Assembly (NCBI GenBank): GCA_964603415.1
Contig: CAZRUN010000001.1
Span: 1 to 39,574, forward strand
Direction of reading: 5' to 3'
Origin: an uncultured Candidatus Saccharibacteria bacterium
Lineage (GTDB): Bacteria > Patescibacteriota > Minisyncoccia > Phycocordibacterales > UBA9973
Length of the DNA stretch: 39,574 nt
The position numbers and the translations under genes are program-made. Of this stretch, positions 3,594 through 16,956 are shown one piece after another. Below the pieces are notes generated by a model. It did not search any database and was not told the origin of the DNA. It worked only from the letters and a program-made list of their open reading frames with translations. Positions within the stretch are counted from its first letter, which is position 1; each line of letters begins with the position of its first letter.

Positions 3594-4869
3594 ATATCTT
3601 CTCGTTAAAATCTACACCGCTGTTAATAGTTTTATATGCTTGCTCGTCAATACTTCCTTTTTCTTTGACCACAAGGGATATGTACAGGTTCTTTTTAAGA
3701 GCATCAGCTCGGAGAACTCGACCATCACCTTGTATCTTATCAACTACCGCAGGGGAATACGAGGCATAAATAACACAGTCGCAGGTCTTAAACTCCCACC
3801 CAGCCGAGATACTTGATTGAACTACTACAATACATTTATCTACATGGTCAATAGTCTCAAGGATCTCTTTGCGGTTTTTTGTCTCACCTGTAATCGTATA
3901 TACGTTATACCCCTCTTGTTTCAGAGCGTCAGCTATAGCATACACCTGCCCTTTCCAGTTTGCAAACACGAGCATTTTATCGAACTCTTCAGCTCGTTCC
4001 AGTATGTACTCGATCTTTTCGTTGTTGAAATGCAGTGTTTTCTTTTTCAGCTCCTCCTCACGTTCATTGATTTTTACCGTCTCGTACGTGTACAGTATAC
4101 CGTTCTCAATAGCTCGTTGCTTGGCTCTACGTGCCATAGGGTCTGCCTCGCTTGTTACATGGTCTTTAATGGCTTGTTTTTGGCTCGTGGTGAGGCTTAC
4201 ATAGTGTACCAGGTGAGTTTGTGGGGGTACGTCAAAGTAATCGTGTAATGAGCCTGTATAGCCATAACGCTTGATGATCTCAAGTCTTCTATTCTCTAGT
4301 TCTTCATTTTGTTTAGCAAACCAAATCGATGTGAACCCTTTTTTGCGTTCTGTATAGTACTTGTTCCGGAAGTCCAAGTAGCTCCACTTCGCTCCGAATA
4401 GGGTTGCCATAGCGTACACGTTGAGCGGTTTTGTTTCAGATGCTGGGGTTGCGGTAAGTGGGTAGTAGCGATCCGGCTTGTGGGTTTCAAGGTACCATTT
4501 AAGTGCATCGAATAGCTGTGATGTCTGTGGGTATTTTACACCACGGCGTGTCACCTCCTTGGTATGTACCCCTGAGAAGAACTTATGAGCCTCGTCCACG
4601 ATTACCGTATCGAACCGTGGGAGTGTACGGTGCAGTTTCTTAAAGTCCTCTTTTGAGAGTACAGTTATATCCTTGTTGATCCCAAACTTTTTGTTCTCAT
4701 TTTCGAACTTCTGCTCATCACGCTGGGTCTTCAGCACTATCACGAGTGTTTTACCTTGTGCAAGTTCAAGTGACGTCCGAGTTTTAGCAGAGCCAGTACC
4801 TTGCCAAAGACCCTTCCACTTAGGATCATCGGCTATTATTTTTTTTTGATGATCGTAAAGTGGTATCAT
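3586..4869 (-). CDS. SF2 (DEAD/DEAH, SNF2-like) helicase
   Basis: Walker A-like GTGSAKT, the motif VIVDEAHKF, and a C-terminal helicase-domain-like region (VVVQSSISAGWEF). Confidence 0.85.
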   Translation of the reverse strand: MIPLYDHQKKIIADDPKWKGLWQGTGSAKTRTSLELAQGKTLVIVLKTQRDEQKFENENKKFGINKDITVLSKEDFKKLHRTLPRFDTVIVDEAHKFFSGVHTKEVTRRGVKYPQTSQLFDALKWYLETHKPDRYYPLTATPASETKPLNVYAMATLFGAKWSYLDFRNKYYTERKKGFTSIWFAKQNEELENRRLEIIKRYGYTGSLHDYFDVPPQTHLVHYVSLTTSQKQAIKDHVTSEADPMARRAKQRAIENGILYTYETVKINEREEELKKKTLHFNNEKIEYILERAEEFDKMLVFANWKGQVYAIADALKQEGYNVYTITGETKNRKEILETIDHVDKCIVVVQSSISAGWEFKTCDCVIYASYSPAVVDKIQGDGRVLRADALKKNLYISLVVKEKGSIDEQAYKTINSGVDFNEKIYE

Positions 4870-10781: not shown

Positions 10782-10829
10782 AATATACCACTTGCATTAT
10801 TGTAACGCAAGCGGTATATCTGTGGATAA
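10782..10829 (-). promoter_or_regulatory. Leftward promoter with an overlapping palindromic operator and an upstream DnaA box
   Basis: On the minus strand: -35 TTGCGT (10805-10810), a 17-nt spacer, and TGGTATATT (10782-10790). A 21-bp imperfect palindrome CTTGCATTATTGTAACGCAAG (10791-10811) covers the -35 element and spacer. TTATCCACA lies at 10821-10829. Confidence 0.6.
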
Positions 10830-11245: not shown

Positions 11246-13717
11246 TTAAAAATTATCCATTTGATAAAGAGTTTTTTTATTAATATTGCTTGCAACCATA
11301 TAATGGTCATGTATATCAATACCTTCAGTTTTCATTTTACCACCATGCTTTTCTCGTGCAATAATTTGAAACTTCTTATCACGTTCTGATATTCGTTTTA
11401 TTTCAGATGTAAATCTTCTATATGCTACAGGTTTCTGTCCGTTGTTTTCTACGTAACTACGATATGTTTTATACAGTACTTCGGTATAAATATGTGTAGC
11501 TTCTTTTGGATAAGTAGCCTCGCTAATAAATGCAAACACTGTACTATTATCTTCTCGGTATCCCTTAATGATATCTTCTTGTTCTTGTGTTTCTGTAAAC
11601 TTACCATTCTTTTCAAGTCTGTTAAGTCCTTCAAGTGCCCAATTTAGTATTCCTGATAATTCATGAGCAAGTTTACCTCCTGAAAACCGTAGTGTTGTGT
11701 CCGGGTGAGATCTAAAATTATTTCCAAAATTCACTGCTAAGATACGGCGTTCTGTTCCTGACGAACTATCATCTACTCGTGGCATTTCATTCACTGCAAG
11801 AATAAACTTTGCTTGTGTTCTAAACTTAAACTGATCTCGGTACTTCATGTTTACAGTAATTTCTTCTCCTGAAATCAATGCTTTAAGTTTGTTTGAGTGA
11901 AAGTAGTTACCTGAAATTTCTTCAATAATATTTAATCTCTTTCCGATCAATCCCGCCATTCCGAATTGTCCGTAGATATCTTCAAGTGAAATATTAGATG
12001 TTGCATCTTTTCCAACAAGCATTCCAATGGTATCAGCAAATGTTGACTTTCCGTTCCCCCCGTCCCCAATCAAGTACAACGCTTTTGAGTGTTTCATTGA
12101 ACGTGTGAGACAGTATCCTGCATATTCTTGCAACATATTTCTTTTCAATTCCTCTTCTTGTCCTTCTGTCCAAGCTTGCAAGCTCTTATTCCACACTTCG
12201 CACTTAGCGTTTGGATCGTAATCAACATCAAACTGTACAAAGCTTACAAAATCAGGTGTGTGTTTTAATAGTTCTTTTGTTCTAATGTTCAATAGTCCAT
12301 TTTTAACGTTAATTATATCAGGGTCTTCATTTTCTGTTATGGTTGGAAGTATTGAAAGTAAACACATTATCTTATCAGATACACATCGACTCGTTCTATA
12401 AGTCCATAACATATCTTCAAGCATTGAAGATAGTATTAATGTATTAAGATTATCTCTATCTAACATTTTATAAACACCTCCCGAGTAGTTAAATACAACA
12501 CCTGCGTGGTTTTTTTTCAAGTTTGGATACTTATTTAATATCTCAATTTCATACGTTGAAAACCGGATCTTATCTTGTTCTCTCCGCTCCTTAGCGACTT
12601 CTGTATATGCTTTTTTAAGAGCCTCTTCTTCTTCTTGTGTTGTATTGTGCTTTATAATTTCATTATTCTTTCCAAATACGCAATTATTATCATAAGCCCA
12701 TTCAACAACCTTCTTAACTTCGTATCCACCACGACCTTTTTCTTTCACGATTCCATGCCAACCAGTCTTGGTAATATGTTTTACTGTCTCTTCCTTACTC
12801 CAACCTGCCATACGTGCTAGTGCACTTGCTACGATCATTGCTCCGTGTCTTGAAGTGTTTGGTGGTAGTGTACGGTCATCACCACTAAGTATTGCCTTAA
12901 ACGAAGGTCGTTCTTCAAGTGGGTACTTACTATTAAGTGCTTGAAAAAAGTTTGCTGTTTCGTTGCTGATAGTAACAATATCACCTCCAGTAATACGGTT
13001 CTTACTTGACGCAATACTACTTAATCCGTTTGAAACACTTCTCTCTACTGTAGTATCAGGTGTTGATAATGCGATAATCTCCTCAACCTGATTCATACTG
13101 TATCGCTTTGACAGTTCTTTTTTAATTATATTAATAGTAAAAGGTGCCTTATCGTATCCTTCTTTATATAAATTATCTGTTTTTTTCCAATACTTAGTCT
13201 GAGGAATACGTAAAATTCTTGTAAGATCTTTTACTACGTTATCAGCTTTAAACCATGATACTAGTTCTTGTTCTATAAACAACCATTGTTGTTTTTTCTT
13301 TTCCCATTCTTCTTCACTGTAATCATCTTTATATATTGTCTCATCAAGTAACCAATACAGATGATATCCTTTCATTGTCTCAATAATATAAGTAGGAGCA
13401 AATACTGCTGATATTTTATCAAGCTCTAATTGATCTTTACGGTTATCAATATCAATAAAAAATGAATTAATACATGTAAGGTCGTTTAATGTACAACTTT
13501 TGTTTTTTGCAAAATTAGCAAACCCGTTTACTGTAAAGTAACTTTCGTATCCAAGGCTATTAAATTCTTCTATTTTTTCATAATCTGATGTAAGCTCAGG
13601 CTTTCTACTATTGCCTGTTATGTCAATAAATCTAAACACATGGTCTGGAAACATTTCAAGAAATTCATCTCTCTTCTTTTTTTCCGTTGCGGTTAATATA
13701 TTTTTTTTATTATCCAT
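11246..13717 (-). CDS. Bifunctional primase-polymerase (AEP prim-pol) fused to a D5/P4-type SF3 helicase
   Basis: The N-terminal region has FFIDIDN (DxD motif) and KGYHLYW (sxH motif). The C-terminal region has the Walker A LIGDGGNGKSTF plus P4/D5-like sequence. The ATG at 13717 is preferred over the TTG at 13732. Confidence 0.9.
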   Translation of the reverse strand: MDNKKNILTATEKKKRDEFLEMFPDHVFRFIDITGNSRKPELTSDYEKIEEFNSLGYESYFTVNGFANFAKNKSCTLNDLTCINSFFIDIDNRKDQLELDKISAVFAPTYIIETMKGYHLYWLLDETIYKDDYSEEEWEKKKQQWLFIEQELVSWFKADNVVKDLTRILRIPQTKYWKKTDNLYKEGYDKAPFTINIIKKELSKRYSMNQVEEIIALSTPDTTVERSVSNGLSSIASSKNRITGGDIVTISNETANFFQALNSKYPLEERPSFKAILSGDDRTLPPNTSRHGAMIVASALARMAGWSKEETVKHITKTGWHGIVKEKGRGGYEVKKVVEWAYDNNCVFGKNNEIIKHNTTQEEEEALKKAYTEVAKERREQDKIRFSTYEIEILNKYPNLKKNHAGVVFNYSGGVYKMLDRDNLNTLILSSMLEDMLWTYRTSRCVSDKIMCLLSILPTITENEDPDIINVKNGLLNIRTKELLKHTPDFVSFVQFDVDYDPNAKCEVWNKSLQAWTEGQEEELKRNMLQEYAGYCLTRSMKHSKALYLIGDGGNGKSTFADTIGMLVGKDATSNISLEDIYGQFGMAGLIGKRLNIIEEISGNYFHSNKLKALISGEEITVNMKYRDQFKFRTQAKFILAVNEMPRVDDSSSGTERRILAVNFGNNFRSHPDTTLRFSGGKLAHELSGILNWALEGLNRLEKNGKFTETQEQEDIIKGYREDNSTVFAFISEATYPKEATHIYTEVLYKTYRSYVENNGQKPVAYRRFTSEIKRISERDKKFQIIAREKHGGKMKTEGIDIHDHYMVASNINKKTLYQMDNF

Positions 13718-13726
13718 AGTGAGTAT

Positions 13727-13816
13727 TCTCAAGCGACAGTATTTCCAACTTCAGGGAAGAAATACCGTCACTTGAGAACTGAAGTTATTTTTTTCTACTG
13801 GTTCGACAACCAGTAG
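13727..13816 (-). promoter_or_regulatory. Structured 5' leader of the primase mRNA with mutually exclusive hairpins
   Basis: Hairpin A pairs TCTCAAG.GAC.GTATTTC (13727-13745) with GAAATAC.GTC.CTTGAGA (13759-13777). Hairpin B pairs AACTTCAG (13747-13754) with CTGAAGTT (13779-13786). Hairpin C is CTACTGGTT-CGAC-AACCAGTAG (13795-13816). Confidence 0.45.
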
Positions 13817-13873
13817 ACACTATTATACTACTTTTAAAAAATAAAACACAAATAAAAGTAATACAATATTCCA

Positions 13874-13918
13874 ATTGTAACACATAACCTATACAAATGT
13901 CAAATAAATATGTATAAT
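13874..13918. promoter_or_regulatory. Back-to-back overlapping divergent promoters
   Basis: Minus strand: TTGACA (13898-13903), an 18-nt spacer, and TGtTACAAT (-10 hexamer at 13874-13879). Plus strand: TATACA (13890-13895), a 17-nt spacer, and TATAAT (13913-13918). Confidence 0.5.
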
Positions 13919-13965
13919 CATTGATTTTTTAGGTGTTTTTTTTGGTAAATAAGCCTTATTTTAGT

Positions 13966-14279
13966 GAACATGACTTTTTAAAAGTTGTGTTCAAGTCATG
14001 TACAGTCATGTACGGATCTGCTAAAAATGGGCGAAAAACGTACACAAGTACACAAGTGTACATGACTTTTTTAAAAGTCATGTACGGATTATATGTATAT
14101 AATATAATGGTTAAATGGAAAACGTACACAAGTACATGACTTTTTTTATAAAACTGTTTGTAAAATTATATAGGTATATAGTGCCAAAAAACCCTTATAA
14201 ATTGATTTTATATATAATAGAAAAGTTTATAGCAAAAAGTCATGTACTTGTGTACACACACATTTGACAGTGTGTCAAA
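13966..14279. repeat. Iteron/palindrome array: 9-mer GTCATGTAC/GTACATGAC and 8-mer GTACACAA
   Basis: Perfect 9-mers lie at 13995, 14005, 14058, 14077, 14132 and 14239, with a degenerate copy at 13966. A 28-bp palindrome spans 14058-14085. The 17-mer GTACACAAGTACATGAC (14124-14140) has a perfect inverted copy at 14239-14255, and the two flank a ~98-bp AT-rich spacer. The hairpin TTTGACA-GTG-TGTCAAA lies at 14263-14279. Confidence 0.85.
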
Positions 14280-14411
14280 CGGTTCAGTGTAATTTTATAA
14301 CCAGTTAATACTACTTGCGGTCTATGTAACTATTCTGCTATACTATCCCAAGAGGTTCGAAACCTCGATATTAAAAACAATCTATGGTAGTGATAGTATC
14401 TACCAATCATT

Positions 14412-15570: not shown

Positions 15571-16956
15571 ATGGAAATAAACCCAACCAAAAAACAAGCA
15601 GAGGCTTGGAACTTATTACTTGATAATACAACTAAGTATGTTGTATTTGGAGGATCAGCCGGGGGTGGAAAAAGTTGGCTTATTTGTGAATGGTTACTGA
15701 CTCAATGTATAGCACACCCAGGATCAAAGTGGTTTGTTGGTCGTGACGAATTAAAGAAGATTATGTCATCGACGTTTCAAACGTTCATTAAGGTATGTAA
15801 TTTTCATAAGATAGATTCTAGTTTGTGGAAATTAAACGGGCAATATAACTATATCGAGTTCACAAACGGCTCGAGAATCGACTTGTTGGACCTTAAACTA
15901 TTACCTACTGACCCATTATTCGAACGATTTGGGTCGATGGAGTTTACTGGAGGGGCTATTGAAGAAGCCGGAGAGGTTCATGCAAACGCTTTTGAGATCT
16001 TAAAGTCACGTATTGGGCGACATATGGCTGATTCATGCTATCCAAAGATACTTATTACTTGCAACCCAAAGAAGAATTGGTTGTATTATGACTTCTATCT
16101 GCCTTGGAAAGAGCAAAGATTGGTATCACCGTACGCTTTTATTCATGCAGCCTACAATGATAACCCGTATACAGCTGAAGTTTATGGTGAACAATTGAGT
16201 GGACTTAAAGATAAAGTGCAACGAGAACGTCTCATGATGGGTAACTGGGAATATGATGATGATGAGAATGCGATATTATCTTATCGTGACATTATGTCAT
16301 TGTTTGAAGTATCAGGAACGACAGGTGCTAAGTACATGACGGTTGATCCGGCATTCTTAGGAAAAGATGAGGCAGTTATTTATGTTTGGAATGGGTGGAT
16401 TGTTGAAAAAATTATATCAATCCCAAAGACTGACCATGAAACATTATTAATGCTGATTGATATGTATTCAAAGCAATATGATATCCCAAGACGTAACATT
16501 GTAGCCGATGCAGTGGGTGAAGGAGCTTACTTACCTAACTTAATGCGTGGAATACGAGGGTTTATCGGTGGAAGTAGTGCGTTAGGTGATAAGGATCACA
16601 GGCTTGATGAGCTTAAACGACCGTTTTATGCCAACCTACGCAGTCAATGTATCTATGAAATAGCCCAAAAGATTAAATTAGGGCAGGTGAGAGTCGAGTG
16701 TGATGATGAAGCTATCAAGGTAAAGCTCGTACAGGAGCTTGAACAGTGGAAGTTGAAGGCAGTTGATGATGATAGAAAGGTAGCAATCATAGGCAAGGAC
16801 GAGATCAAGGCGTCAATCGGACGTTCAACTGACTTCTCAGACTGTTTATCAATGCGAATGTTCTTTGAACTTGATGGAGTGAAACCAGTTTCGAGCGATG
16901 TTGCTCGTAGACAATTACAAGTAAACAAACAAAACTTCAATAAGTGGGCAATCTAG
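15571..16956 (+). CDS. terL: Terminase large subunit
   Basis: Walker A VVFGGSAGGGKSW. The size (461 aa) and the position between TerS and the portal also fit. Confidence 0.85.
   Translation: MEINPTKKQAEAWNLLLDNTTKYVVFGGSAGGGKSWLICEWLLTQCIAHPGSKWFVGRDELKKIMSSTFQTFIKVCNFHKIDSSLWKLNGQYNYIEFTNGSRIDLLDLKLLPTDPLFERFGSMEFTGGAIEEAGEVHANAFEILKSRIGRHMADSCYPKILITCNPKKNWLYYDFYLPWKEQRLVSPYAFIHAAYNDNPYTAEVYGEQLSGLKDKVQRERLMMGNWEYDDDENAILSYRDIMSLFEVSGTTGAKYMTVDPAFLGKDEAVIYVWNGWIVEKIISIPKTDHETLLMLIDMYSKQYDIPRRNIVADAVGEGAYLPNLMRGIRGFIGGSSALGDKDHRLDELKRPFYANLRSQCIYEIAQKIKLGQVRVECDDEAIKVKLVQELEQWKLKAVDDDRKVAIIGKDEIKASIGRSTDFSDCLSMRMFFELDGVKPVSSDVARRQLQVNKQNFNKWAI

Follow-up and report, generated by a model that had tools for sequence, protein, structure and literature searches.

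The question raised by this locus is what a gene-free spacer packed with short repeats would do between two diverging gene arms. The window, by which we mean the whole stretch of 39,574 bp analysed here, is one contig of a 728-kb genome bin made of 52 contigs, and its content is phage DNA. The minus-strand left arm encodes a SNF2-like helicase, a RecU-like protein, YopX, a zinc-finger protein, a PD-(D/E)XK nuclease and, last, a primase-helicase of 828 aa. The plus-strand right arm begins with a 213-aa protein, followed by a small terminase of the P22 gp3 type, the large terminase, a probable portal protein whose gene has no family match, and structural genes. The contig breaks inside the tail or lysis region and its ends show no terminal overlap. 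Neither an integrase nor a repressor was found in the window, and Rfam and tRNA scans of the window were empty. The spacer itself, which the initial annotation had put at ~ 0.7 kb and had read as a candidate replication origin and/or master operator region, extends from 13733 to 14411 (679 bp). The cumulative GC skew of the contig has its minimum at 13-14 kb, which is not independent evidence for an origin because it coincides with the switch in gene orientation.

All the repeats reported in the initial annotation are present, at the coordinates it gave. The dominant motif, GTCATGTAC (motif A), occurs in perfect form at 13995(+), 14005(+), 14058(-), 14077(+), 14132(-) and 14239(+). In the whole 728-kb assembly there are nine copies (seven for the reversed-pattern control), six of which lie in a 253-bp part of the spacer (13995-14247), a clustering far beyond chance; outside the spacer the window has a single perfect copy, inside terL at 16332, and no second iteron cluster was seen in the window. 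Together with a degenerate copy the iterons form three inverted pairs of one polarity, GTACATGAC ... GTCATGTAC, separated by A/T-rich spacers of 20 bp (13966/13995, the left copy being the degenerate one), 10 bp (14058/14077) and 98 bp (14132/14239). A second motif, GTACACAA (motif B), is restricted to the spacer with four copies, at 14040, 14048 and 14124 (+) and at 14248 (-), and has the core GTACA in common with GTCATGTAC. Its units lengthen the outer iteron pair to a perfect inverted repeat of 17 bp, which remains 83% complementary over 35 nt, while the 28-bp palindrome has 13-nt arms that are 100% complementary. The 13-mer AGTCATGTACGGAT is found twice, at 14004 and 14076.

Features of the spacer and of its two flanking genes.
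Feature	Position	Strand	Remarks
Primase-helicase, 828 aa	11246..13732	-	AEP primase, D5_N, SF3 helicase and C-terminal winged helix (about aa 720-828)
Leftward promoter-like site for the primase-helicase, TTGACA-18-TACAAT	13903-13874	-	TG extension; 11/12 consensus matches
Rightward promoter-like site, TATACA-17-TATAAT	13890-13918	+	10/12, weaker; would transcribe into the array
Iteron A0, degenerate GTCATGTTC	13966..13974	-	Inverted pair with A1 around 20 bp of A/T-rich DNA
Iteron A1, GTCATGTAC	13995..14003	+	
Iteron A2, GTCATGTAC	14005..14013	+	10 bp after A1
Two tandem copies of GTACACAA	14040..14055	+	
28-bp perfect palindrome	14058..14085		Iterons A3(-) and A4(+) with TTTTTTAAAA between them
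Left arm of the 17-bp inverted pair	14124..14140		GTACACAA(+) fused to iteron A5(-)
AT-rich core, proposed DNA-unwinding element	14141..14238		98 bp, 82.7% AT
Right arm of the 17-bp inverted pair	14239..14255		Iteron A6(+) fused to GTACACAA(-)
Palindrome TTTGACA-GTG-TGTCAAA	14263..14279		
Tentative promoter of the SSB-like gene, TTGCGG-18-TATACT	14315..14344	+	TG at -15/-14; by eye, not called by the consensus scan
Leader hairpin TGGTAG-(9 nt)-CTACCA	14385..14405	+	Ends 6 nt before the SSB-like start codon; kept in relatives with compensatory changes
SSB-like protein, 213 aa	14412..15053	+	Acidic tail ending DLPF

The AT content of the core enclosed by the outer pair is reached by 0.013% of the 98-bp windows in the contig, and no stretch of this length in the contig is richer in AT than the core, which shares the top rank with the promoter segment of the spacer (13821-13918). 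In terms of duplex stability it ranks 4th among the least stable 100-bp windows, core and promoter segment both being in the lowest four. The 68-aa open reading frame of the spacer had been regarded as a probable artefact of the repeats, and our results agree with this: the spacer ORFs of 68, 57 and 50 aa have no tblastn relative in ~ 170 related loci.

We consider that the spacer is probably an iteron-type replication origin bound by the adjacent primase-helicase. The initial annotation had identified no initiator for these sites; a candidate can now be named, namely the C-terminal winged helix of the primase-helicase, whose binding to the iterons is predicted from homology to PriRep5 of the staphylococcal island SaPI5. 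The likely start codon of the primase-helicase is the ATG at 13717. The protein matches the Pfam families DUF5906 (SF3 AAA+), D5_N and, in its C-terminal part, Pox_D5, as well as the PHROG family DNA primase. Against PDB 7OLA, which is PriRep5 (PMC9371898), a match with E=5.7e-24 was obtained over aa 431-783, at an identity of ~ 20%, with the alignment reaching into the winged-helix region. An AlphaFold (AF2) model based on 38 homologues has a pLDDT of 80.5 and ends C-terminally in a helix, helix, strand, strand unit, which is typical of a winged helix. Foldseek matched the model to the ASFV primase-helicase (AsfvPrimPol) over its full length, and to 7OLA over the helicase and C-terminal domain (TMt 0.65-0.67, rmsd about 5 A). 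The primase-helicase hence combines the parts by which SaPI-type initiators are defined, i.e. SF3 D5_N and AAA+ domains with a C-terminal winged helix and, optionally, a primase.

SaPI Reps are self-loading initiator helicases whose C-terminal winged helix binds iterons, and SaPI origins contain 6-12 iterons in opposite orientation on either side of an AT-rich region of ~ 100 bp (PMC9371898; bioRxiv 10.64898/2026.10.17.759575). In SaPI5, inverted iterons around an A/T tract (AAAATTTTAAAA) have been proposed as early melting points (bioRxiv 10.64898/2026.10.17.759575). By analogy, replication would start in the spacer and proceed in both directions, as at the origins of self-loading SF3 initiator helicases (SaPI Rep/PriRep, P4 alpha). 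The C-terminal winged helix of the primase-helicase would recognise the 9-bp iterons GTCATGTAC, perhaps also the related GTACACAA units, and hexamers would assemble on the oppositely oriented sites 14124-14140 and 14239-14255. The 98-bp core would then melt, possibly starting from the short A/T tracts inside the inverted pairs 13966-14003 and 14058-14085, after which the primase-helicase would both unwind and prime while the SSB-like neighbour would coat the opened strands. Synthesis would presumably fall to the host polymerase, since the scan of the window ORFs recognised no DNA polymerase. Three elements of this scheme are what we infer: the iteron-binding protein, the melting of the core and the start of replication at the spacer. 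Counting against an origin, the iteron sets are asymmetric, with most copies to the left of the core and one composite site to its right. Around the core, motif A is represented seven times and motif B four times, and each side holds at least two sites, as in the SaPI count, only if motif B is taken as an iteron.

No perfect DnaA box TTATNCACA is present in 13733-14411, where two AT-rich matches with one mismatch were found at 13909 and 14094; this absence fits a self-loading initiator. The combination of DnaA boxes beside iterons and an AT-rich region, which marks a DnaA-dependent plasmid-type origin, is thus not seen in the spacer. Elsewhere in the contig the perfect DnaA-box sequence TTATCCACA occurs four times, at 1662, 1681 and 2731 (+) and at 10821 (-), and similar boxes precede the promoter of the SSB-like gene in relatives, in tandem in L087. 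These boxes could belong to DnaA-regulated promoters or represent a -35-region element.

The comparison was next extended to related phages. Neither the spacer nor the 11 kb around it matched the phage collection (blastn, megablast), and single-protein scans of IMG/VR gave no match, a deeper alignment being needed to reach relatives. The primase has more than 300 homologues, about 50% identical to it and carried by contigs whose length reaches 48 kb, and the 213-aa protein delimits the same phage family as the primase. Naive k-mer calling of arrays yielded false positives from coding repeats in L070, L092 and L077, and both orientations or non-coding gaps were therefore required. Among 169 loci, many of which do not reach the junction of the two arms, we searched for an inverted 7-mer pair with a spacer of 45-140 bp and at least 75% AT, and at least 4 copies nearby. 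This layout was detected in 34 of the 169 loci, compared with 3 of 169 after shuffling within 50-bp blocks. The relative L012/L013 has the divergent gene order of the window, and its 637-bp spacer is filled with a different motif, GGTGGCACG, which likewise includes an inverted pair enclosing an AT-rich core. Co-orientation of the SSB-like and primase genes is the rule in most relatives, and there the array occupies the large divergent spacer that separates the early arm from the packaging arm (terS, terL, portal). The motif itself is phage-specific and drifts, reading GGGACAT, GGGACATA, GGGCATAA, GACATAAGA, GGTGGCACG, CGGGGCACG, CGGGGCAAA, AGGTTAGG or GTGTTGCATAG, as co-evolution with a specific binding protein would produce. 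The iteron GTCATGTAC of the window is common to no other phage compared, and an exact search of IMG/VR for its inverted pair returned only 9 isolated two-copy palindromes, on unrelated contigs. Across the family, the array layout is kept and the motif changes between phages.

The position of the SSB-like gene also differs within the family. In most relatives it belongs to the early arm, where it precedes the primase gene in the same orientation (e.g. L115:10001-10645), while in the window, L012, L027/L028, L080 and L147 it stands immediately right of the iteron spacer; the replication module has therefore been rearranged around the array. Two further kinds of repeat were observed at these junctions. 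Inside the junction spacer of L110 (L110:2514-2587) there is a perfect (TGAGCA)n microsatellite of about 12 units, and G-rich/C-rich runs such as ggggagacccccccc recur on the packaging-arm side of many junctions (L098, L103, L109, L110).

If the C-terminal domain reads the iterons, both would be expected to vary together. The identity of the window primase to its relatives is 24-31% in the C-terminal domain, 36-48% in the primase domain, 46-54% in the middle region and 60-71% in the helicase, and this most diverged domain coincides with the most divergent iteron of the family. Phages with related iterons show 56-71% identity in the C-terminal domain. L095 and L107, whose iterons differ in the last two bases, are 78-89% identical elsewhere and 68% identical in this domain. 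Furthermore, at the alpha-4 positions matching the DNA-contacting residues N729/K730 of PriRep5, the window has Arg-Arg and the relatives have Ile/Val-Thr-like residues, a correspondence read by eye from the alignments, allowing for an offset between the numbering of the paper and that of the PDB chain. This parallel divergence is suggestive, though not decisive, of a C-terminal domain that reads the iterons, in a comparison of few and phylogenetically related sequences in which the putative TerS diverges in parallel as well.

Regarding transcription, the initial annotation had placed back-to-back promoters at 13874-13918, and we find both a leftward and a rightward site there, as consensus matches only. 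In L012 an equivalent of the leftward site, TTGACA-18-TGGTATATT, is seen by eye at the same place, and no equivalent of the rightward one was noticed by eye in that locus. The tentative promoter of the SSB-like gene is modelled on the TTGCACCGACA-N-TGTATAAT element that is conserved before this gene in relatives. Autoregulation by the initiator or a secondary regulatory role of the array is possible. A more far-reaching proposal, which we regard as rather doubtful, is that of a dual-purpose hub: the primase-helicase, when occupying the origin, would also determine the output of both divergent promoters (replication and SSB/packaging), so that late expression would be coupled to replication, with the assistance of a CCTTAT/ATAAGG site (L095, L098, L107) for a shared host/phage co-factor. 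Were it true, SaPI-type self-loading origins would be general in a large family of uncultivated tailed phages of 40-48 kb and not only in satellites.

The CCTTAT/ATAAGG motif is conserved across phages with differing iterons. The palindrome CCTTAT-N3-ATAAGG lies beside the iterons, often as gtttAAGCCTTATaaaATAAGGgt, at L095:640-1030, L098:2190-2300 and L107:4610-4790. Its counterpart in the window is ATAAGCCTTAT at 13949-13959 (half-site at 13954), with another half-site at 14193. The motif may be a site for a shared co-factor. As a general feature of these junctions the CCTTAT-N-ATAAGG palindrome was rejected, its full form being found in only 5 loci.

The array could alternatively have no replication role and serve as an operator, through which a phage transcription factor would control the divergent primase and SSB/packaging promoters as an early/late switch. 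Indeed, the array sits between two divergent promoter-like sites, the leftward promoter abuts it in both the window and L012, and palindromic, phage-specific motifs are typical of operators as well. However, operator sites are expected to overlap or abut the -35/-10 hexamers at a conserved spacing, and the repeats overlap the hexamers of neither flanking promoter, lying ~ 60 bp from each, while the distance from the array to the rightward promoter varies from ~ 60 bp in the window to ~ 550 bp in L110. Moreover, neither in the window nor in L012 is the array flanked by a gene for a repressor, an integrase or a small DNA-binding protein, and an operator leaves unexplained the conserved AT-rich core of 70-100 bp between inverted sites. 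A pure operator role is therefore unlikely, given that the array overlaps no promoter, that its spacing varies and that no regulator gene flanks it. Between the two functions first suggested for the region, the origin is supported indirectly by the PriRep5 homology, the layout conserved in the family and the coincidence of an outlier domain with an outlier iteron, and the master operator is not supported, with no promoter overlap, a variable distance and no repressor or integrase found in the window.

Position gives mixed evidence and does not alone decide between an origin and a packaging site, because the array heads the packaging arm in nearly all relatives. As a pac or cosB-like site at the head of this arm, its repeats would be small-terminase sites flanking a cut or bend region. 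The array indeed lies in the spacer preceding terS/terL in relatives, and known pac and cosB sites contain repeated TerS-binding boxes, such as pacL/pacR of SPP1 and the R sites of lambda cosB. We nevertheless judge this very unlikely. One point against it comes from L174 (G005:C12:1-14000), a distant relative on a phage-like contig of 58% GC from another bin. There, five copies of GTGACGGGT, a 92-bp AT-rich island and four inverted copies follow the primase-helicase gene (array at ~ 3700-3915), and the terminase gene is 9 kb beyond, so that in L174 the array accompanies the helicase instead of the packaging genes. In addition, array and terS are not adjacent in the window, where the SSB-like gene lies between them, nor in L147, if terS is, as presumed, the closest neighbour of the large terminase gene there. 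The junction is also internal rather than terminal in several near-full-length contigs of 34-46 kb. Finally, the TerS of the window belongs to the P22 gp3 family, and the pac site of P22 lies inside the terS gene. Covariation with TerS was considered as a way of telling pac from ori and was uninformative: among the array-bearing relatives examined, none encodes a homologue of the window's TerS, and divergence of the other TerS type keeps step with that of everything else. L174 also carries a sigma-factor-like gene and a large terminase, and its bin is of the same genus as that of the window, whose own phage contig has 38% GC; phage contigs that are not related to one another seem to accumulate in bins of this genus.

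It is hardly credible that the array is a partition centromere like parC of plasmid R1, which also consists of two iteron sets flanking a promoter core, or a set of functionless repeats, as no ParA or ParM-type ATPase was seen among the ORFs scanned and the family-wide conservation of the layout argues against repeats without function.

The 213-aa neighbour had been called SSB-like in the initial annotation. Its AF2 model has a pLDDT of 86.8, and Foldseek matches to OB-fold SSBs were weak, the best being PrgE with E=5e-3; in the family alignment the C-terminal end reads ...PF or ...DF. The label thus finds weak support in an OB-fold-like model and in the acidic ...DLPF tail, and an SSB-like function is plausible on the basis of the model. 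Of 73 distinct regions upstream of this gene in relatives, 64 have a hairpin of at least 6 bp in the 55 nt before the start codon (mean 27 and maximum 39 for shuffled sequences), mostly at the corresponding position as judged by eye. The stems include TGATAG/CTATCA, TGGCGG/CCGCTA, TGACGG/CCGTCA and TGGTCG/CGACTA, in which the G.U pairs are allowed on the mRNA strand only. This leader hairpin may act as an operator for translation of the SSB-like gene. Another small hairpin, GAGGTT-CGA-AACCTC, is located at 14352-14366.

Gene relatives of the phage were found in bins labelled Patescibacteria and Akkermansia and on a scaffold of a Chitinophaga isolate, and the phage host is consequently not to be inferred from the bin, the relatives being scattered over differently labelled bins and an isolate. 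For the relatives that came from the genome-contig scan, the MAG labelled Akkermansia and the Chitinophaga japonensis scaffold, no array was present in the DNA examined. The latter (L185, Chitinophaga japonensis DSM 13484, 167117-175725) holds a homologue of the SSB-like protein at 37% identity within a 1.06-Mb scaffold. It may represent an integrated relative of the phage family, in which case a cultured Bacteroidota isolate could be a tractable host.

Returning to the origin reading, the array, most likely an origin, is a well-supported but ordinary kind of element, and its closest known system is the SaPI Rep/PriRep origin. The initiators of SaPI/PICI origins (PriRep5) are homologous to the primase-helicase of the window and share its SF3 and D5_N domains, N-terminal primase fusion and C-terminal winged helix. 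The origins are likewise ~ 300 bp long, with short opposed iterons around an AT-rich region of ~ 100 bp and inverted iterons with a short A/T tract. Several differences are nevertheless found. SaPI iterons measure 5-7 bp, compared with 9 bp and a second 8-bp motif in the window, and SaPIs are satellites whereas the element in the window is a complete tailed phage. Furthermore, the SaPI origin is immediately downstream of rep, and the array of the window is upstream of the primase-helicase gene, in a divergent spacer. The downstream position is found in the distant relative L006/L174; no array lies just downstream of the primase gene in the collinear relatives, where the SNF2-like helicase gene directly follows. 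Since the downstream-of-rep rule does not hold here and binding is only predicted, the element is not filed as a strict SaPI-type member.

In phage P4 the alpha protein likewise carries primase and SF3 helicase activities on one polypeptide, together with a C-terminal winged helix for binding the iterons of the origin (PMC2777425). The database label of the window's protein family is "P4 family phage/plasmid primase". The primase domain of P4 alpha is DnaG-like, and that of the window resembles the AEP type of AsfvPrimPol. The cis elements of P4 are two and lie apart (ori and crr), compared with the single iteron cluster seen in the window. The origins of iteron plasmids (RepA/pi/TrfA) and of the lambda type (lambda O) are alike in having initiator-specific repeats beside an AT-rich unwinding element. 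Their initiators, however, have no helicase of their own and depend on DnaA, or on a loader that brings in host DnaB, whereas the spacer of the window has no perfect DnaA box. SV40 large T antigen and papillomavirus E1 are also SF3 helicase-initiators with sites flanking an AT-rich segment and a double hexamer, but they use another origin-binding domain in eukaryotic hosts, so that the resemblance is mechanistic only.

These results leave the current understanding of replication initiation unchanged. They provide a concrete, testable origin-initiator pairing for a large family of uncultivated phages, and indicate that complete tailed phages, too, use the origin layout of staphylococcal satellite islands, placing it where their two transcription arms meet. 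The family offers a natural series of altered iterons with altered C-terminal domains, which could serve the study of winged-helix specificity and could also supply orthogonal origin/initiator pairs.
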